DNA of 64,000 nucleotides from an uncultured Chloroflexia bacterium (GTDB taxonomy: Bacteria; Chloroflexota; Anaerolineae; Anaerolineales; Anaerolineaceae): NCBI GenBank assembly GCA_963811225.1, contig CAWEQO010000004.1:300762-364761 (forward strand). The letters are read 5' to 3'. Numbering within the stretch: the first letter of the stretch is position 1; every line of letters begins with the position of its first letter. Positions 4,590-51,066 of the stretch are shown here, one piece after another. Under the pieces are notes generated by a model that was not told the origin of the DNA, did no database searches, and saw nothing but the letters and a program-made list of their open reading frames with translations. Position numbers and translations under genes: made by a program.

Positions 4590-4632
4590 GTAAATGGTAG
4601 AGTTTGTCTTTTTTATAGGGAGGAATCTCAAT

Positions 4633-6099
4633 ATGTTCGCCGTGCATGCGTTTTCTCAGCAAGACCCACAGTGGAAAGAGAAAAAGCTCGGCCTCAGCAA
4701 AGAGCTGACGATTGGGCAGTTCGGCTGCCTGCTGACCTCTATTACGATGGTATCCAATGGATTCGGTTACAGCGAAACCCCGGCTTCCTTAAATGACAAA
4801 ATGGCCGCGGCAGGCGGCTTTGTGGGCGGCCTGATCCGGCCCACCACAGTCTCGAACGTGCTCCCCGGCGTTCGTTATCAAAAGCGCATCCAATGCAACA
4901 ACCCGCCTGCGCCGTTATCGGAGATCGATGCGGCCCTAAGCGCGGGGATGCCGGTAATCGTCAAGGTGGACGCATCCCCCGCCGATGGTGTGCAGGATCA
5001 CTGGATCGTCGTGGTGGGCAAGGCAGACGGAGGTGATTACTGGGTCCAGGATACCTGGCGCTTTCCCACCGAGGCGAAATTGATCTTGATCACCAGCCGG
5101 TATGGCTTTGGGCGCAAACCGAACGAAATCATCAAGGATTCCCTCTTCTACGAGGGCACACCGCGCCCGGATGCCAAAGGCAGCACGACTGTTCCTGCGC
5201 CGGTTGTGGTGGCCCCTCGCAGCGGTCCAAAGCCCATTCCTGCCAACGCATTAAATGTCTACGTCACCGCCGACAGCCTTGCTCTCCGCGAGCAGCCCTT
5301 CATTGAGAACAACATCATGCGCCGTCTGCCGATCCAGACCAGGCTGATCGTGCTGGAACCGCCGGAAGAGGCGCAGAAGAAGATCGGGGTGGACAACCAG
5401 TGGTTGGAGATCGAGGAGCCCGTGCGCCATGAGCAAGGCTATGTGGCGGCCTGGTACGTCTCGATGACCACGCCCGAGGTTCCAGATATCCCCGCTGCGC
5501 CTGACGGGACAGCAACCCAACCCCAGCAGCCCAGGCCTGAGGGCTTCGTGGTGTACGCTTCGGGCGATAACCTGGCCGTGCGCAGTAGTCCGATGATCGG
5601 GAATAACTTGCTCAAGCGCGTGCCGGTCAACACGCAATTTATTGCGCTCGACTCAGAATACTCGGCGAAACAGAAGTTCGGCAAAGAGGGCCAGTGGCTG
5701 AAGGTGCGCGATATTTCAGGGGATGAGGGCTATGTGGCTGCCTGGTGCCTGTCGCTGTACGAGTTTACCCCACCGCTGGGGCCTGTCCCGGCGACACCGA
5801 CCCCGCCTTCGGCCACCATCACGGCGGCGGTGAATGGATCCGGCCAACTGATCGTGCGGACCACCGTATCGGACCTGGCGTTCCGCTCGCAGCCGGTCAT
5901 CCTGGGTTCCACGCTGATCAAACGCCTGCCGCTGTCGACCGAGCTGCTGGCGATCGAACCGGTCAACGAGGCTGCGGCGAAGATCGGGGTGGTGAACCAG
6001 TGGATCCAAGTGCGTGATATTCAAGGGAATGAAGGCTATGTCGCAGCCTGGTACGTGGTGAAGAGTCCAAAATCATCGCTATCAGAGCAAACCGGGTAG
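4633..6099 (+). CDS. Papain-fold C39-like cysteine peptidase fused to three SH3b repeats, no signal peptide
   Basis: N-terminus FSQQDPQW..GQFGCLLTSITMV (Cys32) and DHWIVVVG (His123) resemble the Peptidase_C39_2-type Gln/Cys/His arrangement. Three repeats of about 70 aa each end in GYVAAW(Y/C)(V/L), which is SH3_3-like. Start set at the ATG with the GGGAGG SD; the ATG at 4594 lies at the predicted transcription start site. Confidence 0.75.
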   Translation: MFAVHAFSQQDPQWKEKKLGLSKELTIGQFGCLLTSITMVSNGFGYSETPASLNDKMAAAGGFVGGLIRPTTVSNVLPGVRYQKRIQCNNPPAPLSEIDAALSAGMPVIVKVDASPADGVQDHWIVVVGKADGGDYWVQDTWRFPTEAKLILITSRYGFGRKPNEIIKDSLFYEGTPRPDAKGSTTVPAPVVVAPRSGPKPIPANALNVYVTADSLALREQPFIENNIMRRLPIQTRLIVLEPPEEAQKKIGVDNQWLEIEEPVRHEQGYVAAWYVSMTTPEVPDIPAAPDGTATQPQQPRPEGFVVYASGDNLAVRSSPMIGNNLLKRVPVNTQFIALDSEYSAKQKFGKEGQWLKVRDISGDEGYVAAWCLSLYEFTPPLGPVPATPTPPSATITAAVNGSGQLIVRTTVSDLAFRSQPVILGSTLIKRLPLSTELLAIEPVNEAAAKIGVVNQWIQVRDIQGNEGYVAAWYVVKSPKSSLSEQTG

Positions 6100-6137: not shown

Positions 6138-8237
6138 ATGAGCACAACTGCCGATCTTGAAATTGGCTTGCATCGTTATGATAGCAAGCAGTATGTCGTG
6201 GAGTTCCGCTTCAGCCCTCCAAACAGTGAGGGAGACATCCGCCTGGGGCAGAGCGACGTGATGACCGCTCAATTCGATTTTACGAAATTGAGCTCGCTCA
6301 TCTATGATTTACAGGAATACGGTAAGCTGCTGACGGCCGGGTTATTCTCCGACTCGGATGTCAAGTCTGCCTTTGCCCAGGCCTTCACAGCCGCCCAGTC
6401 GAATAGTACTCCCCTGCGCGTGCAGCTGCTGATCGGCCCGAGCGCCCCCGAGCTGCACGCGCTGCATTGGGAAACGCTGCGCGACCCCGCCGACGGCTCA
6501 CCCCTATGTACCAACCAAAATATTTTGTTCTCGCGCTACCTGAGCAGCCTGGATTGGCGTCCGGTGCGCCTGCGTCCCAAGCAGCAGTTCCGGGCCTTAC
6601 TGGTGGTGGCCAACCCGGAAGACCTGTCCGAGTTCGATCTCAACCCAGTCGATGTGCCGGGTGAGACCGGGCGTGCCAAAGCTGCTATGGAAAACGTGGC
6701 AGTCGATACGCTGCCGGACGAGCAAGGGGCGCGAGCGACGCTCAAGAACATCATCGGGCGCCTGGACGATGAGGATTACGACGTACTGTACCTGGTTGCT
6801 CATGGGGCGCTGATCAAGGACGAAGCCTGGCTGTGGCTGGAAGACGATGAGGGCTGCGTGGCCCGCACGGCAGGCAGCGATCTGGTCATGCGGCTCAAGG
6901 AGCTGGAGCAGCGGCCGCGCTTGATTGTTTTAGCGTCTTGCCAGAGCGCGGGCAAGGAGGATGCAGGCGCCGGCCGGCAGGGTGAAGCCCTGGCAGCCCT
7001 GGGGCCGCGCCTGGCCGAGGCAGGCATTCCGGCGGTGCTGGCCATGCAGGGCAACATCAGTCTCGAGACGGTCGCCGGCTTCATGCCGGAGTTCTTCAAG
7101 CAGCTGACCGACGACGGGCAGATCGACCGGGCGGCAGCGGTGGCGCGCGGAACGGTGCGCGAGCGCAGCGATGCCTGGATGCCGGCGCTGTTCATGCGCT
7201 TGCGCAGCGGCCGGATCTGGTACCTGCCGGGCTTCGGGGAGCAGCGCACGGATTTCGAAAAATGGCCCTCGCTCTTGCAGCGCATCAGCGATGGGCAGTG
7301 CACGCCTATCCTTGGTCAGGGCTTGACCGAGCCGATCATCGGCTCGCTGCACGATCTGGCCCGCCGCTGGGCCGAGAACTATCACTATCCCATGGCGCCT
7401 TACGAACGCGAGTCTTTGCCGCAAGTGGCCCAATACCTGACGATCAACCAGGACCCCAGCTTTCCCTTAGACACCCTTAAGAAGTACTTGCGCCAGGAAC
7501 TGCTGCAGAAGTTCGGGGATGATTTGCCGCCCGAGCTGGCGAAACCGAATTCGGCGCTGGACGATGTGCTGGATGCGGTGGGACGCAAGCGCTGGAAGGA
7601 CTCCCCGCAAGATCCATATCAGGTGCTGGCGCATTTACCCTTGCCGGTCTACATCACCACCACCTACAACCATTTGATGGTGGCGGCGTTGAAGGACGCC
7701 GGGAAAGACCCGCAGATGGTGGTGTGCCCCTGGAATGAGTATATTCAGCAGCCCAAATCGATCTACAACCGTGAGCCGAATTACTATCCCACCTGCCAGC
7801 GCCCGCTGGTCTACCAGCTGTTCGGCAGCCTTTCTGTCCAGGATTCGGTGGTGCTCACTGAGGATGATTACTTCGATTTCTTGATTGGGATCACCGGCAA
7901 CAAAGATCTGATCCCCCCGGTTGTGCGGGCTGCCCTGGCGAACACGGCCTTGTTGTTCCTCGGCTTCCAAATGGACGAGTGGAACTTCCGGGTGCTGTTC
8001 CGCAGCATCCTGGCTCAACAGGGCAGCGGACGCCGAGACCGCTACACCCACATTGCCGCCCAAATTGAGCCGGAAGAGGGACGGCTGCTTTCCCCAATCA
8101 ACGCGCAGCGCTACCTGGAAAATTATTTCAAAACCGAGTACATCAGCATCTTCTGGGGGAGTGCGGATGACTTTATCAAGCAGCTTTGGCAGAACTGGCA
8201 GCAGTACGGCCCAGGAGAATGCCATGACGATGCATGA
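6138..8237 (+). CDS. CHAT (caspase-like clan CD) protease fused to a C-terminal SIR2_2-like domain
   Basis: CHAT dyad: YLVAHG (His222) and LIVLASCQSAG (Cys268), preceded by LHWETLRDP. The C-terminal half follows the SIR2_2 motif order: ILGQGLT (Gly-rich loop), VYITTTYNHL (vs TTNYD), LVYQLFGSL..SVVLTEDDY (vs K-L-H-G-S..vlT..dY), LLFLGFQMDEWNF (vs GyS..D). GGAGG SD at 6129..6133. Confidence 0.8.
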   Translation: MSTTADLEIGLHRYDSKQYVVEFRFSPPNSEGDIRLGQSDVMTAQFDFTKLSSLIYDLQEYGKLLTAGLFSDSDVKSAFAQAFTAAQSNSTPLRVQLLIGPSAPELHALHWETLRDPADGSPLCTNQNILFSRYLSSLDWRPVRLRPKQQFRALLVVANPEDLSEFDLNPVDVPGETGRAKAAMENVAVDTLPDEQGARATLKNIIGRLDDEDYDVLYLVAHGALIKDEAWLWLEDDEGCVARTAGSDLVMRLKELEQRPRLIVLASCQSAGKEDAGAGRQGEALAALGPRLAEAGIPAVLAMQGNISLETVAGFMPEFFKQLTDDGQIDRAAAVARGTVRERSDAWMPALFMRLRSGRIWYLPGFGEQRTDFEKWPSLLQRISDGQCTPILGQGLTEPIIGSLHDLARRWAENYHYPMAPYERESLPQVAQYLTINQDPSFPLDTLKKYLRQELLQKFGDDLPPELAKPNSALDDVLDAVGRKRWKDSPQDPYQVLAHLPLPVYITTTYNHLMVAALKDAGKDPQMVVCPWNEYIQQPKSIYNREPNYYPTCQRPLVYQLFGSLSVQDSVVLTEDDYFDFLIGITGNKDLIPPVVRAALANTALLFLGFQMDEWNFRVLFRSILAQQGSGRRDRYTHIAAQIEPEEGRLLSPINAQRYLENYFKTEYISIFWGSADDFIKQLWQNWQQYGPGECHDDA

Positions 8238-11200
8238 TGGAACCCTACCGCCCAACCCTTATGTGGGGCCGCGCTCATTTCAGACCGGCGAGAAGATGTA
8301 TGGCCGCGACACGGAGGTGCGCAGGCTGCTCGACCTGCTGATCGCCGAGCGTATCATGGTCCTGCACTCTCCTTCCGGCGCGGGAAAGAGCTCGCTGATC
8401 CAGGCCGGATTGATCCCACGCCTGGAAACCGAGGGGTTCCACATCTTCCCAACCGTGCGCATTAACCTGGATCTGCCCTCCGGCTGCCGTGACCGCGCCG
8501 ATTGCAACCGCTATGCCTTCAGCGCGCTGATGTCGTTGGAAGAAGCCCTGGGCGAAGAACATAAGCATCCGGTGGATCAACTGACCGGCTTAACGTTGGA
8601 GGCGTATCTCTCGCAGCGTGAGGCGCCGCAGGATGAGCCGGCTTCGAAATTGCTGATCTTTGACCAGTTCGAGGAGATCCTGACGGTCGCCCCAACCGAC
8701 CAGGAAGGCAAAGCGGCCTTCTTCAAGCAGCTGGGGGCGCTGCTGCGCGATCGCAAGTACTGGGCGCTGTTTGCCATCCGCGAGGACTTCATCGCCGCGA
8801 TCGACCCATACGTCCGCCCGGTGCCGACCCGCCTGAACAACCGCTTCCGCCTGGACTTCCTGGGCGTGCATGCGGCCCTGCAGGCCATCCAGAAACCGGC
8901 ACAGGTGTCGGGTGTATCCTTCAAGGAGGATGCGGTCGAGAAGCTGGTCAACGACCTGCGCCAGGTGCGCATCCAGCAGGCGGACGGCAGCATGCAGGTG
9001 GAGTCGGGGCCGTACGTAGAGCCGGTGCAGCTGCAGGTGGTGTGCTACAACCTGTGGCAGCACCTGCCGCCCGGGACCAAGGAGATCACCCTGCGCCAGA
9101 TCACGGACGTGGGGGATGTGGACGAGTCGCTGGCGAGTTACTATGCGGAAAAGGTTAGCGAGGCGGCGCAGGCCTGCAGCTTGCCCGAACGCCGGGTGCG
9201 GGACTGGTTCGAACGACATTTGATCACCAAGCAGGGCATCCGCGGCCTGGTGCAGATGGGCTCGGAGCGGAGTGAAGGGTTGGATAACCACGCCATCCGA
9301 ATGCTGGAGAACGATCACCTGGTGCGCTCCGAGAAGCGCCTGGGATCCACCTGGTTCGAGCTGGCGCATGACCGCCTGATTGACCCGGTTCGCAAGAACA
9401 ACGCCGCCTGGATGCAGCAAAACCTCAACTTACTGCAGCGCCAGGCCGCCATTTGGATCCAGCAGGGCCGCCCGGACAGCCTCTTGCTGCATGGCGAGGA
9501 TCTGGAAAACGCCGGCCGCTGGGCAGAGGCTAATCCCAATGACCTGACGGAGGAAGAGAAAGACTTCCTGGCAGACTGCCAGGAGGCCGAAGAGCACCGG
9601 AAAGCGCAGATCGAGCAGCAGCGGTTGGAGCAGGAGCGCCGCGAGCAGTCCTTGAAGCTGGAAGCAGCCGAGAAGCTGGCGGGCTCCGAGCGGAAGCGCG
9701 CCGAGGAACAGTCGAAAGCGGCGGTGTCGCTGCGCCGGCGGGCGATCTTCCTGGCGCTGGCGCTGGTGCTGGCCCTGGGCTTGGCGGGTGTGGCCGGGTA
9801 CTACTACCAGGATTCCAACAAGAATTTCCGGGATGCTCAGTCCCAGGCGGTCACGGCGGACTCGGCCCGCAAGCTGGCCGAGAGCGCTAACGAAACGTCG
9901 GTGGTGAATGCGAGCATTGCTCAGGCGGCCAGCAACCTCTCCAACGCCGAAAGGCTGAAGGCGGAGGCGCAGAAAGGGTTGGCGGACATCGCTTCCACCC
10001 AGGCCATCGATCAGAAGAACACCGCCGTGGTGGAGTCACAGCTGCGCGGCACGGCCCAAGCCAAGGTGACCCGTTCGCGGGCGGATTCCCTGGCTTCGGT
10101 GACCTATATGCTGGCGTCGCAGCCGGACCTGCGCGACCTGCTCAGCGTGGAGGCTTTCCGCATCCTGGATACCTCGCAGACCCGGCTGGCGCTGCTGTCG
10201 TCCCTGTTGTCGGGCCAGGACGTGCTGTTTAATTCGCTGGGCTTCGGCATCCCGCCGGAAGTCTCTACGGTGACTCAGATGAGCATTCAGGGCGACGGCC
10301 AGTACGCCGCCTGGGGAAACAACGATGGAGAAGTCGTTTTCTACAGCGTCAACCAGCAGGAAGCGCTGTGGCGCAAACGGGCGCACTCGGGCGCGGTCCC
10401 GGCGGTGGCGCTGTGCAGCGCAAACGGCGAGCAGGTGCTGGCAACCGGTGGGGTAGACAATTACGTGCGGGTGTGGAACCCGATGGACGGCTCCATCCGC
10501 TGGAGCAACCGCACCCCAAACATTATCGCAGCCATCTCGATGAGCGGGGATTGCTCACAGATGGCGGTGGCAGCCGGGGCGGCGGTGGAAATCTACAACA
10601 CCCAAAGTCGCGCGCTGCTGCACCGGATCAACCAGCCGCAGGTCATTTCAAGTGTCGCTATGTCTGAGGACGGCAAACAACTGGCTGTTGGACTGCCGAA
10701 CGGGCAGATTGTGATCTACCTTACAGACAGCAAAGACACTTTCACTCTCGGATATCAAAGCGCGGCGGTGATCAGCCTGGCCTGGCTGCCGGACAACCTC
10801 ACGCTGGCCTCGACCGGTCACCAGCAGACGGTGAACCTGTGGAACACTGAGCTGCGCAAACCCGTGAAGACCTACCGGAAGGATATTGTGGGCAAATCCG
10901 ACAGCATCGCCATTAGCCCGGACGGCAAGCTGTTAGCAGCCGGGGAGGGGCGAGGCGAGGTCCAGGTGTGGGACATGGAAAGCGGCGAAATGTTTAGCTC
11001 GCAGGTGCATACCAATGACGTGGAGCACGTCGCCTTTGCCAATAACCAGGGTAAGCTGATCCTGGCATCGAGTGGAGGGGACCGGCGCGTGATTTTGACC
11101 GAGCTGCGCGTCCAGCAGCGTCTTAGCCGGACCGTGAACAACCAGGGACCATCTTCGATGGCGCTGGCGTTCAACCGGGATGGAAATTTGCTGAGCGCCG

Positions 11201-12057
11201 GCCCGCAGGACAATAAGCTGGTGGTGTTGAACATCGACGGTAAAACGATGGCCGAACCCGGCGTGCAGGTGGAGATGAGCCGCATGGCGCTCAGCGCCGA
11301 CGGCTCGACCCTGGCCGTGGGCGGCAAGGATGGCTCGATTGCAGTGGTGGCCGGTCTGGACACGCCCGATCCGGCCCCGCTGCCAGTGATCCAGGCGGCG
11401 CCCGCAGCGATTGACGGACTGGCATTCAGCCCGAACGGCAAGACGCTGGCCTCGATCTACTGCGAGGGGGGAAGTCTGGTAAACGGCCAGCCCGCTTGCG
11501 CGAAAGGCGTAATCCAGTTCTGGGACGTGGCCAGCGGCAAGTCGAAGCACTCTGATTACACCTACACGGACATTCGCTTGACTTCGCTGGTCTACTCGCC
11601 GGACGGATACACCCTGGTATGCGGCAGTAACGGCTCCTTGATCTCTTGGGATTTGACCAACGGTAAGCCGCGTATGCTGAGCAACGTTTTCGGCGGGAAC
11701 GCCAGCTGGATCTCCAGCATGGCCTTCAGCCCGGACGGCAAGACGCTGGCGGTCGGCAGCCAGGATGCCTGGGTGAGCCTGATAGATTTGGCCTCGGGCG
11801 CCAGTTACAGCCCACTGTTCACCACCCCGGGCCAGGTATTCAGCCTGACCTATGATGCGACGGGCGGCTACCTGTATTCCGGTCAAAGCGACGGCACGGT
11901 CCTGCGCTGGGACGCCAGCCCGAAGCTGTGGGTGGACACGGCCTGCCAGTTCGCCGGGCGCAACATGGCGGAGTACACCGAGTGGGACCGCTACTTGCCC
12001 GGCGATCCATACCGGCTTACCTGCCCACAGTACCCCTCTGGGGCGGCGGGATCTTAA
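8224..12057 (+). CDS. STAND-type P-loop NTPase, coiled coil, TM helix and a roughly 14-repeat WD40 array
   Basis: [42 protein letters not shown] (Walker A, K55) and LLIFDQFEE (Walker B, D147). Helical/coiled-coil region [20 protein letters not shown], then hydrophobic helix [22 protein letters not shown] (nt 9742..9807). Repeats such as [20 protein letters not shown] and GVIQFWD run to the C-terminus. The ATG at 8224 overlaps the upstream stop by 14 nt. The ORF-track start at 7921 lies inside the upstream gene and was rejected. Confidence 0.85.
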
Positions 12058-12065
12058 TCAAAAGG

Positions 12066-13997
12066 ATGGCGAGGATGAGCGCAGACTTTCTATATTTCAA
12101 CGGCGTGGATGGGGCCAGCGGAGACTACTTGCTGCCGCCGATGTCACCCGCCGACGTGAGCAAGGTGGCCACCGGCGCGCCTCTGGACGAGGCTCAGCTC
12201 AAAGAGCTGAAATGGTGGCACGAACGCTCGACCAGCGGGAACTATGGAGTCAAGGAGGGTGTGGATCCCAAGGACCTGTCTCAGGCGGGGTGGGGCGTTA
12301 TTTTCGCCCACAACGCCGATCCGGCTGTGCGAGATGCGCTAAAAGAGCTGCTCGACTGGCGCAAGCAGCAAGCCGGGAATTATTACCGTGAATACAGTGG
12401 GGCCGAGGGCTACCGTCCGGGCGAGTCGAAGCCGGATTTTTTGGCGCGCCACGGCGCGGGGCCCGGCCCGGCAGATCCAGAGAAGGTGCCGTATTATCTG
12501 CTGATCGCCGGCGATCCGGAGGCCATCCCCTACCGCTTCCAATCCCAACTGGACGTGCAGTACGCGGTGGGGCGCATCCACTTTGACCGGATCGAGGATT
12601 ACGCCGTGTACGCGCACAGTGTGGTGGAAGCCGAGAAGCAGGGATTATCACTGCCGGCTCAGGCGGCTTTTTTCGGCACGTGCAACACGGACGACCCGGC
12701 CACCAACATGAGCGCCGGTGACCTGGTGACGCCGCTGTCCGAGAGCATGGGCAAGGAGAACGAGGGCTGGAAGGTGGATTCGTGGGTCGGGGAGAAAGCC
12801 ACCAAAGCGGACCTGGCGGCGCTGATGGGCGGCGCTCAAACCCCGGCTTTGCTGTTTACCGCCAGCCACGGCATGGGTTTCCCAAACGGCGACCCGCGCC
12901 AGCTGTCTCATCAGGGGGCTTTGTTGTGTCAGGACTGGCCGGGGCCTAAAGCCTGGAAGAAGTCGATCCCCGAGGACTTCTATTTTTCAGCCGATGATAT
13001 CGGCGAGGACGCCCGCCTGTTTGGGATGATCGCCTTTCACTTCGCCTGTTACGGGGCGGGCACACCCCGCAGCGACGAGTTCGCCCAGCAGGCTTTCCGC
13101 AGCCGGGCGGATATCGCTCCGCACGCCTTCCTGGCGCGCCTGCCACAGCGCATTCTGGCGCACCCGAAAGGTGGGGCGCTGGCGGTGATGGGCCATGTCG
13201 AGCGAGCCTGGGGCTATTCCTTCAGTTGGGGCAAAGCCGGGCGACAGCTGGCGGTGTTCGAAAGCGCCCTCAAACGCCTTGCGGACGGGTTCCCGGTGGG
13301 CTCCGCGTTCGAGAAATTCAATGAGCGCTACGCCGAGTTGTCGTCGGACCTGTCGGTGGAGCTGGAGGATATCCAGTTTGGGAAGAAGGCGGACCCCTAC
13401 AATCTGGCAGGGATGTGGACGGCCAACAATGACGCCCGCAATTACGTGGTGCTGGGTGACCCGGCGGTGCGGTTGATGGTTGGAACGGGGGACGCCCCCA
13501 CGAGGCGGCCGGCGCTCGAGATTCAAGGGCCGGTTATCGAGGCGGCGGATGCGAGCGCTGCGGCCACGATCATCGCACCCGGCATGGGAACGCCGCCGCC
13601 GGCCGGGGTGGACTATGGCCTGGTGGACAACTTCCGTCAGGTGCAGGCCAACGTGAGCGAGACGCTGCAGCAGTTTGTGAACCGGCTGGGGACGTTCCTG
13701 GGCGAGGCCCTGGAGGATGCTTCCAGTTTGGAGGTGGGTACATACGTCAGCGATGACATGACCCAGGTCAAGTACGAAAAGGGTCAGTTCAGCGGGGCGA
13801 AACTGCGAGCCTATACCCACATCAAGGTCGACGGTGATACGCTCGTTTGCGTCCCTGAAGAGGATGGCGAGCTAGACCTGGCCTTGTGGAACGTGCACGT
13901 CGAGATGGTCAAACAGGCGCAAGCCAACCGGATGGAATTCCTGCGAACGGTGGTGTCGGCGGCCACCGGACTGGTCGACCTGATCAAGCCGGGTTAA
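12066..13997 (+). CDS. Gingipain/C25-like clan-CD cysteine peptidase with an unknown C-terminal domain, no signal peptide
   Basis: His-Gly/Ala-Cys dyad [10 protein letters not shown] (His268) and [12 protein letters not shown] (Cys328). C25-like landmarks are [22 protein letters not shown] and [12 protein letters not shown]. The ATG at 12066 lies 8 nt after the upstream stop. Confidence 0.7.
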
Positions 13998-14016: not shown

Positions 14017-14766
14017 ATGGCGCATGAGGAGTTCGCTTTACCGAGTGCCCTGAGCGCCTGGGAAACATCCCCGGCTGGGGATGAAGCGGTTTCCTTTGAG
14101 GTTGGGGAAGCCACGGAGAAGATGCCGGTCTGGCGCACAGCCCTCCCAGACAATCCCGAAGAGGCCGAGGCTCAGTTGGAGCGGGTCGAGCGTCAGCTGC
14201 AGACCGCACAGATCGCACTGGGTGAGGTCTCGCAGCGTGTGGAGACGCTGGCAGCCGGCGGGCGCGGAGCGGCTTCGTTTGGCGTGGAGCAGCTGCCGGA
14301 GGCCGAAGCCGAGCTGCTCGCCCTGTTGGCGTCGGTGGGCGCCGAGCAGACCGGATTAAGCTTTGGCATTGCCGGTGTTTCATTGAGCGACTTCGAGCAG
14401 GCCCAGGAGTTCTTCGCTTCTTCGCTGCAGCGATTGTCGAGCGCGATCACCCGACTGGCTCTTGTAGAGACGAGCGTAGGCGGTACAGCGGTCGGCAGGA
14501 CGATGATCGATTGGAGCGGCGATCTGGAGACGGCCTGGCTGCCGCCGCTGCTGCCCGAGCGCCAACGTCAGCACGAACGCTCGCTGCAGAACGCGCTGGC
14601 GTCGCGCACGCTGCTGATGCGCATGCTGTTCACCTCGGCGCAGAGCGCGGCCAAGATTGCCGCGGCGCTGGCGGTTCCAGGCGGTGCAATCATGGCGCTC
14701 CCCGCAGCATGGAAATTCATCATGCGAATCATGCAAGAAATGGAGGAAATACAACATGGCGAATGA
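14017..14766 (+). CDS. Hypothetical coiled-coil protein with a hydrophobic/amphipathic C-terminal segment
   Basis: Helical heptad-like stretch EEAEAQLERVERQLQTAQIALGEVSQRVETL. C-terminus reads LLMRMLFTSAQSAAKIAAALAVPGGAIMALPAAWKFIM. A GGAGG-like SD (caggaggag) lies upstream. I recognise no family. Confidence 0.6.
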   Translation: MAHEEFALPSALSAWETSPAGDEAVSFEVGEATEKMPVWRTALPDNPEEAEAQLERVERQLQTAQIALGEVSQRVETLAAGGRGAASFGVEQLPEAEAELLALLASVGAEQTGLSFGIAGVSLSDFEQAQEFFASSLQRLSSAITRLALVETSVGGTAVGRTMIDWSGDLETAWLPPLLPERQRQHERSLQNALASRTLLMRMLFTSAQSAAKIAAALAVPGGAIMALPAAWKFIMRIMQEMEEIQHGE

Positions 14767-17821: not shown

Positions 17822-19288
17822 TCAGGTTCGTTTCTTGATGGAAAACCCGACAATCAATGCCAACCCTACCACAGCCATGCCGATGAAGAAGAAGCCGAAG
17901 GGGGCGTTCTTGCCCAACGAGAAGGCAGGCTTGGGTGTAGGGGTGGGCGGGACCTGTGTGGCGTTCGGATGCACGGCGGTGGCACGGATGGTGGGCTTGG
18001 CGGTGTTGGAGGGGAGGGGCGTGGCGGTGGCGGGACCAGGAGTAGGCGTGATCGTGGCGGGTGGGGTGACTTGCAGAACCAGCTGCTGGTCGGGGTACAG
18101 GATCGAATCCATGCCCAAGCCGTTCCAGGCCATCAGGTCGTTTAGCTGGATTTCGTACAGCTGGGCAATGTAGGCCGGGTTTTCGCCGCTGTGGACGGTG
18201 TGGTAATACTTGCCGTCGGCCGCCGGGGTCAGCTTTTCGATGGGCGTGAGCGGGCGGGGTGTGGGGCTGGGGGTGATGTCGCCGGGGTAGATGAGCAGTT
18301 TCTGCCCAATCTGCAGCGGCCAGTCGGCCTGCAGGCCGTTCAGCTGCAGGATGGTGTCGATGCTGACCTTGTAAGCCTCGGCGATGGAGGTCAATGTCTG
18401 GTAGGCAGCCACGGTGTGGACGATCTTGCCGTCCGGACCGGGTGTGGCGACCGCAAACCAGCCGACCGGAGTGGGGGTAGCGTAACCTTTGGTGTTTTCG
18501 CCTGGAATAAAGAGCTTCTGCCCAATCAGCAATCCGCCACTGCTGGAGATGTTGTTGAAGTACTCGATGTCTTTGATGGTAACTTTGTAGGCGATAGCGA
18601 TCGACCAGAAGGACTGCCCGGCCTGGACGACGTGATAGATGTTGCCGTCCTCATCGGGCTTAGCCACTTTGACAGGCACGATGATCTGCGAGATGCCGCC
18701 GGCGCGGCCCTCGTTGGTGGTGCCTTCGGTGTTGGGCTTCCAGCCCTCGGGCGGCTTGTACTCGCCGCAGGCCTTATTGGAAGTGTAAGCCGCTTGCAGC
18801 ACGTAGTAGGTCAGGCCGTTGGCCGACTTCGCCACGCCTGCGCCGACGTTGCAGTAGGCCGGGTTGACCGCAGGGATCATGTGGGATGGGTCGGCCCAGA
18901 CCAGCATGACCTCGTCGATCGACATGTGCCCGACGGCGAAGTTCTCGGTGCCCCATACGGTCGCACTGCCGCCGTAGCCTGCCGAAGCCAGTCGCCCGGA
19001 GACGTCGCCAATGTGCCATGACATCTCGTTAGCCGCCATGATCTCGGCCGTCCCCTGCGCCACCGCATCGATGATCGGGTCCTCAATCAGGGCCGGGAGA
19101 CCGTTGGACGAGCGCAGCGTGTTCATCGCTACAATCAAGTCGTAGGCGGTAACGCCGTCGGCCAGCGGTGCGGCCGGGGGCGCATCCAACAGAATGCTCG
19201 CCTGCGCGTCCGTTCCAATCGGCGGGACGAGCCATCCGGCCAGCAGGACAAGTAAAATAAACCAGCGAGTTAGATGAGTAGAGCGCAC
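17822..19288 (-). CDS. Secreted CAP (SCP/PR1-like) domain protein with three LysM domains and a C-terminal membrane anchor
   Basis: Signal peptide, then LRSSNGLPAL..AQGTAEIMAANEMSWH..GTENFAVGH (CAP-like). Three LysM units follow (YHVVQAGQSFWSIAIAY.., HTVAAYQTLTSIAEAY.., HTVHSGENPAYIAQLY..). C-terminus is FGFFFIGMAVVGLALIVGFSIKKRT. Confidence 0.8.
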   Translation of the reverse strand: MRSTHLTRWFILLVLLAGWLVPPIGTDAQASILLDAPPAAPLADGVTAYDLIVAMNTLRSSNGLPALIEDPIIDAVAQGTAEIMAANEMSWHIGDVSGRLASAGYGGSATVWGTENFAVGHMSIDEVMLVWADPSHMIPAVNPAYCNVGAGVAKSANGLTYYVLQAAYTSNKACGEYKPPEGWKPNTEGTTNEGRAGGISQIIVPVKVAKPDEDGNIYHVVQAGQSFWSIAIAYKVTIKDIEYFNNISSSGGLLIGQKLFIPGENTKGYATPTPVGWFAVATPGPDGKIVHTVAAYQTLTSIAEAYKVSIDTILQLNGLQADWPLQIGQKLLIYPGDITPSPTPRPLTPIEKLTPAADGKYYHTVHSGENPAYIAQLYEIQLNDLMAWNGLGMDSILYPDQQLVLQVTPPATITPTPGPATATPLPSNTAKPTIRATAVHPNATQVPPTPTPKPAFSLGKNAPFGFFFIGMAVVGLALIVGFSIKKRT

Positions 19289-19342: not shown

Positions 19343-21451
19343 TTGCCCACCAAATCTCCTATCTATCGCTTTTTGGATCGAATTGCACTGGCGCTGTTCC
19401 CATCGGCGTCTGGGTTAAGCGAGCGCGAGCATGTTGCCTTCGTCGGCGATGTGGTTGGCTCGCTGTATACCCTGCCGCTGGCGCTTGGCGGGCTGGTGTG
19501 GCTGATCACAGCGACCGATCCAGGCAGCCTGGTCCTGCAGCTGCCGTCGCTGGCGGTTACGCTGGTCCTGACACTGCTGCTGTTCCGCTTTGACTTTGTG
19601 GCGCTGATCGAACTGACCCCGGGGGCCATTTCTGACATTAGCGGAACGCTGGCAAACGTGCTGTCGGTGGCGGCGGTGTTGATGTTTGGGGTTAACGGGT
19701 TATGGGTGGCGTTCCTGGCCGAATTGGGGTATCAGTGGATGCACTACGGCGGAACCCGACCGTTGAACCGGCGGCTGAATGCCTTGCGCAATCTGGGGGT
19801 CAACCTCGCGCACATCCTGCCGGGTGGGATGGCCGTTCTGGCCCTCTACCATGCAATTGGCGGGGCGATCCCACTGGCGGGCCTGAGCCTGCCGGCCATT
19901 GGGGTCGGGCTGGTGTTCTGGATGGCCTGGGCAGCGGCGGGCGTGCTGGTCTGGCTGCCGATGCTTCTATATATCGGCTACAGCCTCGATTGGCTGCGCG
20001 CCGGTCAGAATGCATGGCCGCTGCTGCGCTTCTTCCTGATCTCGCTGGTGTTGTTCGACGTGGGTGGCGCTTTCGGGCCGCTGGCGGCGGGCCTGTATGC
20101 GGCCTTTGGCATGCCCGCTTTTCTGTTCTTCTCCGTGGCCCTGCTGCTGGTTGGCTTCCTGGCTAACCGTTTCAGCCGTGCACTGGTGCGGGTCCGGCGG
20201 CAGACGACCTTGTTGGAAGGGCTGGAGCAGCTGGGCCGTGAGCTGATCGCCGCGCCGCCGCAAGTGCAGGCCATCTCGCGCATCCTCAACGACTACCTTA
20301 CCAATGCGCCGCTGCTCATGCCGCGCCGGGCCGAAGTGCGCCTGCGAGACGGCTCTCTGCTGGCGCATTCACCCGCAGACTGGCAGCCCAACCTGGAAGC
20401 GGCCTGGGACTGGATGTGGGCGCACGAGTCCGCGCTGGTGGCGCTGCCGCGCCAAGAGCTGCCCTGGGGCGGCAGCCTGTATGAAGAGAGCCTGGTGTTC
20501 GTGCCGATCGAGCGGGAGTTTGCGGAGGACGGATTCGACCCGCGCTTCTTGGGTGGGCTGTACATGCAGGCCCGGCTGGGACCGTTCGTCGGGCGCGACC
20601 AGCGCGAGATGCTCAACATGCTGACGCCGGCGATGCGCACCCTGACGGCGCAGGTGGCCGGAGCGCTGCAGCACATCGACGATTACCAGACTGCGCTGGA
20701 ACGCCAGCGCATGGAGCGTGAGCTGGAGCTGGCCGGGCAGATCCAATCCACCTTTTTGCCGGATGCCGACAACGTCCCGCGCTTGCCGGGCTGGCAGGTG
20801 TCCGTCTCACTGCAGTCGGCCCGCGAGACCTCGGGTGACTTCTTCGACCTGATCGAGCTGCCTGGCCAACGGATGGGGGTGGTGGTGGCAGACGTGGCCG
20901 ACAAGGGCGTGGGCGCGGCGCTCTACATGGCGCTGTCGCGCACTTACATCCGGGCGATTGCCCTGGGCGGAATGGACTGCTGCCCTGGTCAGACGCTCAG
21001 CGCCGTCAATCGGCGCATTCTAGAGGATACCCACTCCGACCAGTTCGTGACCGTGTTTTACGCCGTGCTGGAATCGGTGACCGGCAAGCTGGCCTACGCC
21101 AATGCCGGGCATCCCCCGGCGCTGTGGCTGCCGGCGCAGGTTGAACGCCCGGTGCAGCCGCTCACCCGAACCGGAATGGCGCTGGGCGTCATGAAAGACG
21201 AGACGGTGGCGGAGGGCAGCATCCTCATGGCTGCGGGCGACCTGCTGGTGTTCTACAGCGACGGCATTTCCGAGGCCGAAAACAACCAGGGCGAACCGTT
21301 TGGGATCGAGCGGCTGGCGCAGACGCTGGCCGGTTTGCGCGGGATGGAAACAAGGGATGTGCAGGCGGCAATCCTCGAACGGGTGCGGGAGTTTACACAG
21401 GGCGCGGCGCAGATGGATGACATGACCTTGCTGGTGGTAGGAAGAGAGTAA
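19343..21451 (+). CDS. Polytopic-membrane SpoIIE/PP2C-family serine phosphatase
   Basis: About 280 aa of multiple TM helices, a linker, then the PP2C/SpoIIE motifs LELAGQIQSTFLP, SGDFFDLIEL, VVVADVADKGVGAALYM, YANAGHPP and DDMTLLVV. The start is a TTG per the track and is uncertain. Confidence 0.85.
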   Translation: MPTKSPIYRFLDRIALALFPSASGLSEREHVAFVGDVVGSLYTLPLALGGLVWLITATDPGSLVLQLPSLAVTLVLTLLLFRFDFVALIELTPGAISDISGTLANVLSVAAVLMFGVNGLWVAFLAELGYQWMHYGGTRPLNRRLNALRNLGVNLAHILPGGMAVLALYHAIGGAIPLAGLSLPAIGVGLVFWMAWAAAGVLVWLPMLLYIGYSLDWLRAGQNAWPLLRFFLISLVLFDVGGAFGPLAAGLYAAFGMPAFLFFSVALLLVGFLANRFSRALVRVRRQTTLLEGLEQLGRELIAAPPQVQAISRILNDYLTNAPLLMPRRAEVRLRDGSLLAHSPADWQPNLEAAWDWMWAHESALVALPRQELPWGGSLYEESLVFVPIEREFAEDGFDPRFLGGLYMQARLGPFVGRDQREMLNMLTPAMRTLTAQVAGALQHIDDYQTALERQRMERELELAGQIQSTFLPDADNVPRLPGWQVSVSLQSARETSGDFFDLIELPGQRMGVVVADVADKGVGAALYMALSRTYIRAIALGGMDCCPGQTLSAVNRRILEDTHSDQFVTVFYAVLESVTGKLAYANAGHPPALWLPAQVERPVQPLTRTGMALGVMKDETVAEGSILMAAGDLLVFYSDGISEAENNQGEPFGIERLAQTLAGLRGMETRDVQAAILERVREFTQGAAQMDDMTLLVVGRE

Positions 21452-27731: not shown

Positions 27732-29435
27732 TGCCCACATTCCGCACCTTGGAATAGCGGATTTTGGGAATATCGGGTAATCTTGGGGGATGAACCCCGA
27801 AACGCGCTATGAAACACAACGGATGGATCACCTGGGGATTGTGGCTGGGATCTGCCAGGAGATCGGGCTGATCGAAGAAATCGACCGGCAAGTTGGGCCC
27901 AGCGAACAAAAGGTGAGTGTTGGGCAAGGAACGCAGGCAATGGTACTGAATGCTCTGGGCTTCAGCAGCCGGGCATTGTATTTGATGCCGGACTATCTGC
28001 ACAACAAACCGGTGGATTTACTGATTGGTCCGGGTCTGGTTGCCGAAGATTTCAACGATGACAGCCTGGGACGCAGCCTGGAGGCACTTTACGCTAAAGG
28101 AGTGACCGAGGTATTTGCCCAAGTGGCGGCGCGAGCCTTAGGGGTGTACGGGATTGAACACCATTTTGTGCATGTGGACAGCAGTTCTTTTCACTTGCAT
28201 GGGCAATATGAAATCGAAGAGCCGAACAAGGAAGCGATCACAATCACGGAAGGCTACTCGCGGGATCACCGTCCAGATCTCAAGCAGGTGGTGGTGCAGT
28301 TGATCACCAGCCAGAAATCCGCACTGCCGGTTTGGTTGGAAGTATTGAGCGGCAACAGCAGTGATAAAGAGACCTTTCCCCTCAGCGTAGAAGCCTACAA
28401 CAAGCAGCTTGGAGGGGGTGAAACGCCATACTATGTCATGGACAGTGCGGGCTATGCGGCAGACAACCTGAAAACGTTGAAGGACATGCTGTGGTTGATG
28501 CGGGTGCCGGAGACGCTTGCGGAAGCCAAGCGGCTCGTGCGGGAGAGCGAAAAGGCAGACATGCAGTGTCTGACAGAAGGTTACTGGGGCAAAGAGGTTG
28601 CAGTTACCTATGGCGATATTGAACAGCGCTGGTTGGTGGTTTTCTCCCAGGCCGCTTATGAGCGCGAACTGCATACCTTGACCAAAAACCAGGAAAAAGA
28701 ACGTCAAGCGGCTGAGAAGCAGTGGCACAAGTTGGGTGGGCAGACCTTCAACTGCCAGGAAGACGCCGAAACCGCTGCAAAACAATTCAACCAGGGCTGG
28801 AAGTTCCACCAGGCAGATGCGGAAGCTGCCCCAATCACTCAATATGCCCGGCGCGGACGTCCCTCGGCTGAAGATAAGCCAGAGATTGTGGGGTACGGTT
28901 TGACAGGGAGCATTTCCGCCGACCCAGAGCGGGTCGAAGCGGCGAAACGCACCTTGGGCAAGTTCATCATCGCCACGAATGAACTCGACCCTCAAAAATT
29001 ATCCCCCATACAAATACTTGAGAACTATACCGACCAGGGCGTTTCGGTCGAGCGCGGTTTTCGCTTTCTCAAAGATCCGCTTTTCTTCGCTGATAGTCTA
29101 TTTCTCAAGAAACCCGAGCGGATCATGGCGTTGATGATGATTATGGGACTGGCACTGCTCATCTATGCTCTGGCAGAACGCCAACTTCGCCTGGGGTTGG
29201 AGGAAAGTAATGAAAAGATCCCCGATCAGAAGGGCAAACCGACCGCAACTCCCACTATTCGTTGGGTTTTTCAGACTTTTGAGGGAATTGATATTCTGTC
29301 CGTCTGGGTGAATGGGCAGCCAACGCTCCGTCAGGTACTCAACCTAAGACCCGTTCACCAGCAAGTTATTCGTTTGTTCGGTTCCCGTGTCCGTAATTGC
29401 TATTTCCTCGATCCTTGAGGTGCGGAATGTGGGCA
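27732..29435 (+). mobile_element. IS1634-family (IS4-like) insertion sequence
   Basis: 18-bp perfect terminal inverted repeats, TGCCCACATTCCGCACCT (27732..27749) and AGGTGCGGAATGTGGGCA (29418..29435), bracket a single transposase ORF. No unambiguous target-site duplication is visible. Confidence 0.8.
27790..29418 (+). CDS. IS1634-family transposase
   Basis: MDHLGIVAGICQEIGLIEEIDRQVG..GQGTQAMVLNALGF..R.LYLMPDY is the N-terminus typical of IS1634/IS4-type DDE transposases. The size (542 aa) fits, and the ORF is bracketed by inverted repeats. Confidence 0.85.
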   Translation: MNPETRYETQRMDHLGIVAGICQEIGLIEEIDRQVGPSEQKVSVGQGTQAMVLNALGFSSRALYLMPDYLHNKPVDLLIGPGLVAEDFNDDSLGRSLEALYAKGVTEVFAQVAARALGVYGIEHHFVHVDSSSFHLHGQYEIEEPNKEAITITEGYSRDHRPDLKQVVVQLITSQKSALPVWLEVLSGNSSDKETFPLSVEAYNKQLGGGETPYYVMDSAGYAADNLKTLKDMLWLMRVPETLAEAKRLVRESEKADMQCLTEGYWGKEVAVTYGDIEQRWLVVFSQAAYERELHTLTKNQEKERQAAEKQWHKLGGQTFNCQEDAETAAKQFNQGWKFHQADAEAAPITQYARRGRPSAEDKPEIVGYGLTGSISADPERVEAAKRTLGKFIIATNELDPQKLSPIQILENYTDQGVSVERGFRFLKDPLFFADSLFLKKPERIMALMMIMGLALLIYALAERQLRLGLEESNEKIPDQKGKPTATPTIRWVFQTFEGIDILSVWVNGQPTLRQVLNLRPVHQQVIRLFGSRVRNCYFLDP

Positions 29436-48663: not shown

Positions 48664-51066
48664 ATGCACAAAAAAATATGGAGTTCCATTTTATTGGGGA
48701 TGATCTTGCTGATGGTTGGTTTCCAGCCGGCGCTTGCAGACGGCATCATCATCCCGCCAGAACCACCGGTCCCTTGCCGGGACTGCCCGCCTCCGCACTT
48801 CCCCCGCCCGATCTCACAACTCGAAATCAAATATCACCACGTCGATGTCAAGATCGTCGATCAGATTGCCATCACCCACGTCGATCAGGTGTTTTACAAC
48901 CCCAACGACTACCCGGTGGAGGGCACCTACATCTTCCCGCTGCCGCAGGACGCGGCCGTGAGCGATTTCACCCTGTGGGTGGATGGCAAGCCGGTCAAAG
49001 GTGAGGTGTTGGATGCCCAGCAAGCCCGCCAGAAGTATGAAGAGATCGTGCGCAGTCTGAAAGACCCGGCCCTGTTGGAGTATATCGGCCAGGGTGCGGT
49101 ACAGGCCAACGTTTTTCCAATCCCACCCAAGGGCGAGCGGCGCATCGAGCTGCAGTATCAGCAGGCGCTGACCGCCGACAACGGCCTGGTGCGCTACGTC
49201 TACCCGCTCAACACCGAGAAGTTCTCAGCCAAGCCCTTGCAGAGTGTGCGCGTGACCGTTGATATCGCCGCCGGGCAGTCGATCCGGGCGGTGTATTCGC
49301 CTAGCCACACCGTCACGGTCGAGCAGCCGGACGAGCGCCATGCCACCATCAGCTACGAGGACAGCAGCATCACGCCGGACGCAGACTTCACCCTGTACTA
49401 CTCGTTGGGTGAGAGTGAGGCCTTCCACCTGTTCAGCTACCGCGATCCGGCCGATCCGGTCGATGCGGATGGATTCTTCATGCTGCTGCTGGCGCCTAAA
49501 CCCGGCCAGCCCAGCCAGACTGTCAGCAAGGACGTGCTGCTGGTATTGGACCGGTCGGGCAGCATGGAGGGCGAGAAGTTCCAGCAAGCTCAGGCAGCGT
49601 TGAAGTATATCTTACGGCACCTCAACCCAGAGGACCGTTTTTACCTGACCACCTTTAGCTCCAACACCGCAGCCTACGCCAATCGCTTGCGCCCGGCCAG
49701 CGAGGCGGACGAAGCCATCGCCTGGGTGAACCACAGCGCCGCAGCCGGAAGCACCGACATCAACCGGGCGCTGCTGGAAACCGCAGCCGTGGTGGACAAG
49801 GAGCGCCCTACCTACCTGATCTTTCTGACCGACGGCCTGCCCACCGAGGGCATCATCGACAGCCAGGAGATCCTGGACAACTTCCAGCGTGCGGCCTCTA
49901 CCAACTTGCGCCTATTCGCCTTCGGCGTGGGCTACGACGTGGACACTTTCCTGCTCAACTCGCTCACGCGCGCCCACCACGGGCTGAGCGCCTACGTTCA
50001 ACCCGGTGAGAATCTGGACGAAACTGTGTCGAGCTTTTACGCTCGCATCAGCACCCCGGTGCTGACCAACCTTTCGCTCGACTTTGGCAAACTGTCCACC
50101 TACGATATCTATCCCAGCCCGCTGCCCGACCTGTTCGACGGCTCGCAAGTGATCGTGGTGGGACGCTACCGCGACGGTGGGACCGCGAACGTCACCCTGA
50201 CGGGACAGGTCAACGAGATGCTGCAGACCTTCCCCTTCAACGAGCAGACCTTCACCACAGACAGCCGGGATGAGACCGGCGCACTGGCCGGGCTGCCGCG
50301 CCTGTGGGCCACGCGGAAAATCGGCTACCTGCTGGAGCAGGTGCGCCTGGACGGGCCCAACCAGGAGACCGTCGACCAGATCGTCAAGCTAAGCATCCGT
50401 TACGGCATTGTCACGCCCTACACCTCTTACCTGGTCACAGAGGATATGCCATTGGGGGCGGCCAACCAGCGCCAGTTGGCGCAGGACACGTTCCAGGAAC
50501 TGCAAGCAGCCCCGAATGAAGTGACCGGTCGCGGCGCGGTGCAAAAAGCCGCCGGAGAGGGCGCGCTGTCGCAAGCGGAAGTAGCCCCGCCGGTGATCGC
50601 TGCCATCCCCAACGAGGGCGAGCAGGAGGTAGTGGCTCAGACCGTGCGCATGGCGGCCTCGCGCACCTTTGTACTCAGCAACGGAGTGTGGATGGATACC
50701 GCCTATGACCCCGACACGATGAAGACCATCAAGGTGGCTTTCCTTTCGCCCGAGTACTTCCAACTTGCGCAGTCGCGCGCCGACGTTGGCGCGGCCCTTG
50801 CACAGGCCGAGCGGGTGATCGTGGTGGTGGACGGTAAAGCCTATGAGGTGGTTGGCGAGGGCGAGCAGACCGGAGCGGTCGAGATGCCGTCCACTGCGGT
50901 GCCCCAACCCAAAGCCAGCGCAGCTCCCACTCAGGCGCCCGCAGCCACTCAGGCCCCGGTCAACCTGCCGGTCAAGCCGGTGGAGCCGGTGACGCCGAAC
51001 GCCTGCCTGGGAATCCTGCTGCCGCTGGCGGCGGTGGTGTCCGTCAAAGTATTCCTGCGGAAGTAA
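48664..51066 (+). CDS. Secreted VIT-domain plus von Willebrand factor A-domain protein with a C-terminal anchor
   Basis: Signal peptide MHKKIWSSILLGMILLMVGFQPALA. VIT-like region VDVKIVDQIAITHVDQVFYNP..EGTYIFPLP. vWA MIDAS motif LLVLDRSGSMEG. C-terminal hydrophobic helix LGILLPLAAVVSVKVFLRK. Confidence 0.85.
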   Translation: MHKKIWSSILLGMILLMVGFQPALADGIIIPPEPPVPCRDCPPPHFPRPISQLEIKYHHVDVKIVDQIAITHVDQVFYNPNDYPVEGTYIFPLPQDAAVSDFTLWVDGKPVKGEVLDAQQARQKYEEIVRSLKDPALLEYIGQGAVQANVFPIPPKGERRIELQYQQALTADNGLVRYVYPLNTEKFSAKPLQSVRVTVDIAAGQSIRAVYSPSHTVTVEQPDERHATISYEDSSITPDADFTLYYSLGESEAFHLFSYRDPADPVDADGFFMLLLAPKPGQPSQTVSKDVLLVLDRSGSMEGEKFQQAQAALKYILRHLNPEDRFYLTTFSSNTAAYANRLRPASEADEAIAWVNHSAAAGSTDINRALLETAAVVDKERPTYLIFLTDGLPTEGIIDSQEILDNFQRAASTNLRLFAFGVGYDVDTFLLNSLTRAHHGLSAYVQPGENLDETVSSFYARISTPVLTNLSLDFGKLSTYDIYPSPLPDLFDGSQVIVVGRYRDGGTANVTLTGQVNEMLQTFPFNEQTFTTDSRDETGALAGLPRLWATRKIGYLLEQVRLDGPNQETVDQIVKLSIRYGIVTPYTSYLVTEDMPLGAANQRQLAQDTFQELQAAPNEVTGRGAVQKAAGEGALSQAEVAPPVIAAIPNEGEQEVVAQTVRMAASRTFVLSNGVWMDTAYDPDTMKTIKVAFLSPEYFQLAQSRADVGAALAQAERVIVVVDGKAYEVVGEGEQTGAVEMPSTAVPQPKASAAPTQAPAATQAPVNLPVKPVEPVTPNACLGILLPLAAVVSVKVFLRK

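Follow-up and report, generated by a model that had tools for sequence, protein, structure and literature searches.

What becomes of a SIR2 domain once its catalytic residues are gone? SIR2 domains in prokaryotic immunity are usually treated as effectors that deplete nicotinamide adenine dinucleotide (NAD+), and the gene analysed here, CHAT-iSIR2 (6138..8237, + strand), belongs to a family that suggests another fate. It lies in a stretch of 64,000 nucleotides from an uncultured Chloroflexia bacterium (contig CAWEQO010000004.1, positions 300,762 to 364,761), which as a whole we call the window. The gene encodes a CHAT protease domain followed by a SIR2-like C-terminal domain without canonical catalytic residues, here named iSIR2, and it overlaps the gene of an nSTAND1-WD40 nucleoside triphosphatase (NTPase). 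Family alignments, a structure model and related loci reveal that the canonical residues are missing across the family, that relatives carry other N-terminal domains in front of the same iSIR2, and that the pairing with nSTAND1 persists. Our best explanation takes the gene product as the effector chain of a STAND/NLR-type conflict system in Chloroflexota, made up of two genes (up to five here); we give an even chance to iSIR2 being a pseudo-enzyme that docks swappable effectors onto the STAND sensor.

Domain layout and catalytic positions

The layout of the protein was read from Pfam, profile and Foldseek matches and from an AlphaFold2 model built on 143 homologues (predicted local distance difference test, pLDDT, 92.8; predicted template modelling score, pTM, 0.91):

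6138..8237, +: CHAT-iSIR2 gene, open over 699 codons, 699 residues, Pfam CHAT and SIR2_2
6138..6401, +: N-terminal beta/alpha region, residues 1-88, secondary structure from the AlphaFold2 model
6402..7169, +: CHAT (clan CD) protease domain, residues 89-344, Pfam PF12770 (E 2.7e-29)
6801..6803, +: putative catalytic His222 (AHG, in LVAHGALI), invariant in 120 close homologues
6939..6941, +: putative catalytic Cys268 (SCQS, in LASCQSAG), invariant in the same 120
6945..6965, +: residues 270-276, low-confidence loop directly after the catalytic Cys
7263..8207, +: iSIR2, SIR2-fold domain, residues 376-690, Pfam SIR2_2, phmmer/profile matches and Foldseek
7314..7328, +: Gly-rich loop GQGLT (G393-T397) replacing GAGxS, aligned to GAGFS of KomC
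7662..7664, +: T509 at the catalytic-Asn position (TTNYD to TTTYN), from the phmmer alignment
7821..7823, +: F562 at the catalytic-His position (HG to FG), from the phmmer alignment
7950..7982, +: LFLGFQMDEW, resembling the LFxGFSFxD motif, whose Ser is replaced by Q/R/H/K

The N-terminal half carries a competent-looking clan-CD protease with an intact and conserved His/Cys dyad, as the first-pass annotation, made from the sequence alone, had proposed. The PF12770 match scores 103 bits against a gathering score of 24 bits, and in an alignment of 143 sequences Cys268 is invariant and His222 at least 90% conserved. Foldseek searches of the Protein Data Bank (PDB) with this half retrieve the TPR-CHAT protein Csx29 (8eex) and SAVED-CHAT (8tl0), with the caspase-hemoglobinase fold. 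Residues 1-88 are the least conserved part of the chain (mean identity to the representatives 0.34 versus 0.50 for CHAT). The pLDDT falls below 50 only in the loop of residues 270-276, whose position seems to match that of the inter-subunit linker of caspases, the site of their autoprocessing.

The C-terminal half combines a Rossmann core with a retained helical insert (about residues 398-500), and on the predicted model we are confident that it adopts a true SIR2 fold. Pfam SIR2_2 (PF13289) matches residues 504-663 (E 2.5e-21; 76.7 bits versus a gathering score of 24.5), and Foldseek places KomC/HAM-SIR2 first among PDB structures (target-normalised TM score 0.70), followed by ThsA and DSR2; ThsA, KomC and DSR2 are also the only PDB proteins that iSIR2 matches by profile. 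PADLOC yields partial matches only, of ThsA models to the SIR2 part (residues 489-639) and of the SAVED_CHAT model to the protease part, and NCBIfam holds no family for CHAT-iSIR2 or its four cluster neighbours.

Which residues occupy the catalytic positions of this fold? In a phmmer comparison with all PDB chains the C-terminal half aligns to SeThsA (7uxt), KomC (9v0g) and BcThsA (6lhx, 8bto). TTTYN (507-511) falls on TTNYD of ThsA, SeThsA and KomC, QLFGS (560-564) on K[LMF]HG[DT] of the solved SIR2 NADases and LFLGFQMDEW on their LF[LVI]G[FY]SFxD, and it is these two catalytic positions that are altered in the dead KomC mutant 9v12 (TTAYD / KFAGT). The by-eye alignment of the first-pass annotation was right in setting T509 at the Asn and F562 at the His, and every residue and motif that it had cited is where it had put it (H222, C268, G393-T397, T507-H512 and F562, with SVVLTEDDY and LFLGFQMDEW both present). 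With Phe in place of the His and Thr in place of the Asn, canonical NADase chemistry in iSIR2 is very unlikely.

The same picture extends over the family, which we read in an alignment of 151 sequences, namely the query and 150 diverse representatives. Column 562, the canonical His, reads F130/Y11/L9/A1 and is never His or Asn; column 509, the canonical Asn, reads N83/T18/D16/S11/Q6/A5, with Asn in 83 of 151 sequences (55%). The 120 close homologues give F111/Y7/L2 at position 562 and N100/T13/S6 at position 509. The GAGxS loop takes the form GPGLx, with both glycines kept (G393 invariant, G395 in 80%) and no fixed residue in the Ser column; the serines of GAGxS and GFS are replaced, and the structural Gly, Pro and aromatic residues of iSIR2 remain invariant. 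G393, P556 and G609 are invariant, and G563, W615, F617, R618 and D576 nearly so, W615, F617 and R618 being near-invariants specific to the clade; Q642 and F679 also count among its specific conserved residues. These columns are consistent with polar NAD-touching residues having been lost or left free to vary and with strong constraint on the scaffold and on clade-specific residues, and they indicate that the loss of catalytic residues is a clade-wide trait and not an accident of one gene. What had been claimed for a single SIR2 module holds family-wide; alignment and model brought up neither a conserved canonical Asn/His pair nor a fold other than SIR2, the two outcomes against which the first-pass annotation had staked its reading.

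Two residues before the lost His, column 560 is occupied by His in 70% and by His, Gln or Tyr in 94% of the representatives. It is Gln in the window protein (Q560, 7815-7817), Tyr in some relatives and Lys in active SIR2s, and the residue may be left over from the old site or may represent a ligand contact that has moved.

Could a remodelled site still make iSIR2 an NADase, or give it some other activity that depends on NAD or a nucleotide? The candidate residues would be the His of column 560 and the conserved acids E398, E575 and D576. That His lies on the same strand as the canonical one, probably on the same face, and E575 and D576 are nearly invariant; by analogy, a SIR2 domain without its His can remain active, as the HG to NG variant of PaAvs5 does (10.1101/2025.07.08.663546). 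However, none of the candidates is invariant: residue 560 is Gln in the window protein and Tyr or Gln in 24% of the representatives, and the Asn is kept in little more than half. Function of PaAvs5 is abolished by Ala or Gln at the His position and by Ala at the Asn position (10.1101/2025.07.08.663546), and here these positions hold Phe and Thr. E575 and D576 sit in the 'TEDDY' helix that is common to active ThsA, SeThsA and KomC, which makes them scaffold features. The first-pass annotation had offered N511 and H512 as a shifted catalytic pair; we dropped this pair, as both columns are variable (column 511 D79/S20/G13/T13/N11; column 512 N57/D27/S19/T11/G11, with His not among its six commonest residues). 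A cryptic enzyme is, in our judgement, scarcely probable.

Pairing with nSTAND1-WD40 and exchange of the N-terminus

CHAT-iSIR2 proteins are very abundant. Of 8,000 candidates scored in a word-indexed search, 3,141 proteins matched at E<=1e-5, and every one of the 120 best combines CHAT with SIR2_2 in about 690 residues; an exhaustive search with the SIR2-like half alone gave 1,193 clusters (50% identity) at E<=1e-30. The fusion had been called unusual at first, which is true of the searchable literature, where no paper describes a CHAT-SIR2 protein or pairs 'CHAT domain' with 'SIR2', and is not true of sequence data. Nor is the architecture mentioned in the 2020 and 2021 papers of Kaur, Burroughs, Iyer and Aravind that define nSTAND1 and the EADs (PMC8195603); the 2020 text contains neither of the two terms. 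Eight related genome loci all come from Chloroflexota metagenome-assembled genomes, and each has an nSTAND1 gene downstream, in one of them (L003) after a tandem second CHAT-iSIR2 copy. Viral contigs contained no relative save one weak CHAT-only fragment, and a phage origin was rejected.

The STAND partner that had been noted downstream in the window is, by Pfam, an nSTAND1 protein with WD40 repeats:

8224..12057, +: nSTAND1-WD40 NTPase gene, Pfam nSTAND1 (E 5.7e-35) and WD40 families
8377-8391, +: Walker A GAGKS of nSTAND1, read from the sequence
8656-8676, +: Walker B IFDQFEE of nSTAND1, read from the sequence
about 10264-11940, +: WD40 repeats of the nSTAND1 protein, from Pfam

Its start codon is ATG 8224 or 8230, so that the gene overlaps the CHAT-iSIR2 stop (8235-8237) by 14 or 8 nucleotides. 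Among the 70 fetched loci with at least 400 nucleotides of downstream sequence, nSTAND1 starts directly after the iSIR2 open reading frame (ORF) in 66; of 71 junctions, 44 overlap (21 of them as ATGA), 60 lie within 30 nucleotides and 0 are fused in frame. The NTPase motif NPYVGPRSF begins at about residue 9, which leaves the nSTAND1-WD40 protein without an N-terminal effector or adaptor domain of its own. Effector-iSIR2 followed by NTPase-repeats thus gives the same order as the common effector-NOD-sensor layout, here divided over two chains. Since the NTPase chain carries no second copy of iSIR2, a homotypic interaction through this domain is impossible.

The N-terminus of the chain is the part that changes. 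Members of the same iSIR2 clade carry TIR (P0176, P0251, P0266), CHAT-TIR (P0168), CHAT-metallophosphoesterase (P0218) or EAD1 (P0170) in its place, and each variant has its closest iSIR2 relatives among CHAT-iSIR2 proteins rather than among the other variants. Where the context is readable, nSTAND1 comes next in the variants with TIR, EAD1 and metallophosphoesterase as well: the two genes overlap by 1 nucleotide in L009, the downstream fragment in L011 opens with an NPFIGP motif, and the NTPases of L012 and L013 are 50% identical to that of the window. When 51 loci are compared in pairs, iSIR2 distances show a correlation of r 0.83 with the NTPase on its separate chain versus r 0.65 with the CHAT domain on their own chain, a bootstrap difference of 0.18 (95% interval 0.03-0.29) that amounts to a modest signal of co-evolution. 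Because effectors swap, the nSTAND1 pairing persists and the distances co-vary, the conserved module is iSIR2 together with nSTAND1-WD40, and the N-terminal effector is exchangeable.

These variants bear on a further account of the domain, in which iSIR2 would be a cleavable autoinhibitory prodomain or substrate: CHAT would cut the linker, and release of iSIR2 would be the activating step. Licensing of a linked module by proteolysis is a widespread principle among protease-effector systems (10.1101/2025.11.14.688446), the pTM suggests tight packing of CHAT against iSIR2, and linker residue R354 is nearly invariant. This account does not sit well with TIR-only and EAD1-only members of the same clade, which have no protease in the chain, nor with a linker that is ordered and conserved (pLDDT 85-97 over residues 350-390) rather than an exposed loop; a released dead SIR2 would have no obvious toxic activity, and the strict nSTAND1 pairing would be left unexplained. 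We regard it as highly improbable, and the early suggestion that the SIR2 domain is a substrate of the protease finds no place among the protease-free variants.

Alternatively, iSIR2 could be a ligand sensor whose old active-site cleft still accepts NAD+, ADP-ribose or a similar nucleotide and which gates CHAT allosterically, without hydrolysis. The lid-equivalent helical insert and the loop glycines (G393, G395, G563, G609) are kept, the closest folds, ThsA and KomC, are nucleotide-regulated SIR2s, and the residues found in column 560 would allow hydrogen bonding. TIR-fused variants place an NAD-processing enzyme in the same chain, and ligand-gated caspase-like proteases are known (10.1101/2024.10.24.620036; 10.1101/2023.06.23.546230). 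However, the polar residues that contact NAD (the Ser of GAGxS, the Asn, the His and the Ser of GFS) are exactly those lost or variable, the operon has no conserved enzyme that would make a signal, its conserved partner being a STAND NTPase that signals by oligomerisation, and the tie between iSIR2 and nSTAND1 would go unexplained. A sensor of this kind, close to the degenerate NAD- or nucleotide-binding sensor of the first-pass annotation, is an unlikely, though not a negligible, alternative to docking; the data favour a constant adaptor or regulatory module for the neighbouring STAND NTPase, which that annotation had not proposed.

Several observations weigh against the docking and defence roles proposed here. 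The excess of the iSIR2-NTPase correlation over that between CHAT and NTPase (r 0.74) is 0.10, with a 95% interval of -0.03 to 0.22, and is not significant; no clean natural fusion of iSIR2 to nSTAND1 was found, also with a chimeric iSIR2 plus NTPase query. The EAD1-iSIR2 variant can also be read with iSIR2 as the effector, the retained insert and nucleotide-loop glycines may leave room for ligand binding, and the NG variant of Avs5 shows that a SIR2 can be active without its His. PADLOC calls no known defence system in the window, whose neighbouring genes are housekeeping genes of an ordinary chromosome, with no defence-island context.

The fusion candidates that we set aside are the following. 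In P0188 the upstream CHAT part forms an ORF of its own, which overlaps, and the match to the NTPase profile is truncated, so that the apparent fusion probably reflects a frameshifted contig. P0419 and P0450, the only finds of the chimeric query, are nSTAND1(NTPase)-CHAT-iSIR2 composites in tandem arrays and not iSIR2-nSTAND1 fusions; P0253 is a similar composite, and none of these four proteins was used to argue for docking. Stand-alone iSIR2 proteins of 340-370 residues were likewise not accepted, as P0199 ends at a contig edge and the contigs of P0169 and P0223 are too short to decide. The NTPase part of the P0419 and P0450 composites lacks WD40, and the P0450 locus encodes no WD40 protein nearby. 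Tandem arrays of CHAT-iSIR2 and nSTAND1 genes occur in L003 (10001-14161), in L015 (83-11511) and on the contigs of P0419 and P0450.

Neighbouring genes and surroundings

In the window, the gene pair belongs to five + strand genes that are tightly packed between divergent housekeeping genes, in the order C39-like/SH3, CHAT-iSIR2, nSTAND1-WD40, gingipain-like peptidase and 249-residue protein. This full order recurs in three further loci (L030, L033, L049) at only 46-48% identity. The remaining features of the cluster are:

4594..6099, +: C39-like peptidase with SH3 repeats, first gene of the cluster, Pfam Peptidase_C39_2 and SH3_3
12075..13997, +: gingipain-like (C25, clan CD) peptidase, weak Pfam C25 match
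12867-12869 and 13047-13049, +: gingipain-like dyad H265 and C325, with SHG and FACYGAG invariant in 48 homologues
14017..14766, +: 249-residue protein, Ala/Leu-rich, no Pfam or NCBIfam family

The gingipain-like peptidase belongs to a large family (7,389 matches at E<=1e-5), and Foldseek ranks gingipain K and RgpB highest for its model (pLDDT 79.6), followed by separase, TPR-CHAT and CED-3. Its chain also has a linker predicted to be disordered at residues 487-529 and, at the C-terminus, a small alpha/beta domain. Its gene is present in 15 of the 28 loci for which wide flanks were available, with neither position nor strand constant, and we therefore consider it a frequent accessory and not a core component. 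We also considered whether it might be the PCaspase of type III CRISPR cascades and rejected this, as PCaspase is a C14 peptidase and the present protein is gingipain-like, of the same clan and another family. The gene for the 249-residue protein comes after the C25-like gene in the window and in at least seven related loci, tblastn placing it beside that gene in L004, L008, L027, L030, L033, L049 and L076.

The C39-like/SH3 gene keeps its upstream position in L030, L033, L049 and L052, and its membership in the system is uncertain. Its protein has no evident signal peptide, and it lies 38 nucleotides upstream of CHAT-iSIR2. None of the five cluster genes encodes a TIR domain, and the features of Thoeris (a SLOG or Macro domain, ThsB) are absent from them.

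Further downstream in the window we note four other genes:

17822-19288, -: protein with CAP and 3x LysM, divergent from the PP2C gene that follows
19343-21451, +: SpoIIE-type PP2C phosphatase, 702 residues, with a long N-terminal region
27790-29418, +: IS-type transposase (DUF4277 and DDE_Tnp_1), about 13 kb downstream of the cluster
48664-51066, +: VIT-VWA protein, 800 residues

Proposed mechanism and known systems

How might such a system operate? We infer the following sequence of steps. The iSIR2 domain would dock its N-terminal effector onto the co-translated nSTAND1-WD40 NTPase and help to hold the effector inactive until the sensor fires. A ligand would bind the WD40 propellers, NTP-dependent oligomerisation of nSTAND1 would gather the iSIR2-anchored CHAT domains, and proximity would switch on the protease. 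Active CHAT would then cut cellular targets, possibly including the gingipain-like protease encoded two genes downstream, with growth arrest or cell death as the outcome. In about half of the loci this may be the start of a two-step protease cascade via the gingipain-like enzyme. Both kinds of step have published counterparts and are plausible for that reason: in human SAMD9, a non-catalytic SIR2-like domain between effector and NOD clamps the closed NOD and has to dimerise for activation (PMC13600222), and in a CRISPR system of type III-B another caspase-like protease is switched on through cleavage by SAVED-CHAT (10.1101/2023.06.23.546230). A defence role is suggested by the parts of the system; the pair may instead serve programmed cell death unrelated to phage in filamentous Chloroflexota.

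Taken one step further, iSIR2 might be the adaptor or gate of a bacterial 'apoptosome', standing where CARD stands in Apaf-1/caspase-9 and bringing a caspase-like protease, TIR or another effector onto an Apaf-1-like WD40 STAND ring. This extension is tentative, and we would sooner doubt it than adopt it. What the family does present is an abundant clade that appears to be without catalysis and yet under strong constraint, beside one STAND NTPase family and behind varied N-terminal effectors. If the adaptor reading is true, iSIR2 would represent an enzyme-derived class of adaptor beside the small helical EAD, Death and CARD modules, and thousands of 'SIR2_2' annotations should not be read as NADases. 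In filamentous Chloroflexota the family also points to an extensive caspase-like system as yet unexplored by experiment.

Compared with the SIR2 defence proteins ThsA, KomC/HAM-SIR2, DSR2 and Avs5, iSIR2 has the same fold and the same Pfam SIR2_2 family, and its best sequence and structure matches are among them; in Avs5, too, a STAND NTPase is coupled to a SIR2 domain. In contrast to these NADases, iSIR2 lacks the catalytic Asn and His and the serines of GAGxS and GFS, has no SLOG domain and no TIR/ThsB partner in the window, and is carried on a separate chain from the NTPase with another effector at its own N-terminus. Since the Asn, His and GAGxS features all fail, iSIR2 should not be filed as a SIR2 NADase.

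The protease half invites comparison with Csx29 (Craspase), SAVED-CHAT and the caspase-STAND proteins, with which it shares the clan-CD fold, an intact His/Cys dyad and the link to an oligomerising sensor. Caspase-like domains have been described at the N-terminus of bacterial Apaf-1-like STANDs with WD40 repeats (PMC12803255); here, in contrast, the protease would be connected from a separate chain via a pseudo-SIR2 and is neither fused to the NTPase nor linked by way of TPR or SAVED. As in the cascade from SAVED-CHAT to PCaspase, a second clan-CD protease is encoded nearby, the difference being that this one is of the gingipain-like C25 and not the C14 family.

The NTPase has the Walker A and B motifs and the C-terminal repeats of an NLR/Avs-type STAND; the effector, however, is not fused to its N-terminus. 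EAD and Death-like systems resemble the present one in having a constant module, swappable effectors and an NTPase core, in the EAD1-iSIR2 variant and in their filamentous or multicellular taxa. The constant module differs: iSIR2 is enzyme-derived, with about 320 residues, and is not a small helical EAD or Death-like domain.

In function, human SAMD9/SAMD9L comes closest, with the layout tRNase - SIR2-like - Delta - NOD - TPR - OB. The order of effector, non-catalytic SIR2-like domain, STAND NTPase/NOD and repeat sensor is found here as well, spread across two overlapping genes, with CHAT instead of the tRNase and WD40 instead of TPR-OB; in addition, iSIR2 keeps its helical insert, whereas the SAMD9 domain is said to be without a lid. 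The profile search against the PDB detected no homology at the sequence level; no SAMD9 chain is among the profile hits or the 50 Foldseek matches listed of 149 significant ones, although SAMD9 structures may postdate the library searched. The relation is one of functional analogy, possibly through parallel evolution, and the thought that iSIR2 might be a counterpart or an independent reinvention of the SAMD9 SIR2-like clamp is one we hold only loosely. If the adaptor reading is true, the gene pair would offer a simple two-gene bacterial model for the interplay of SIR2-like domain and NOD behind SAMD9/9L disease mutations.

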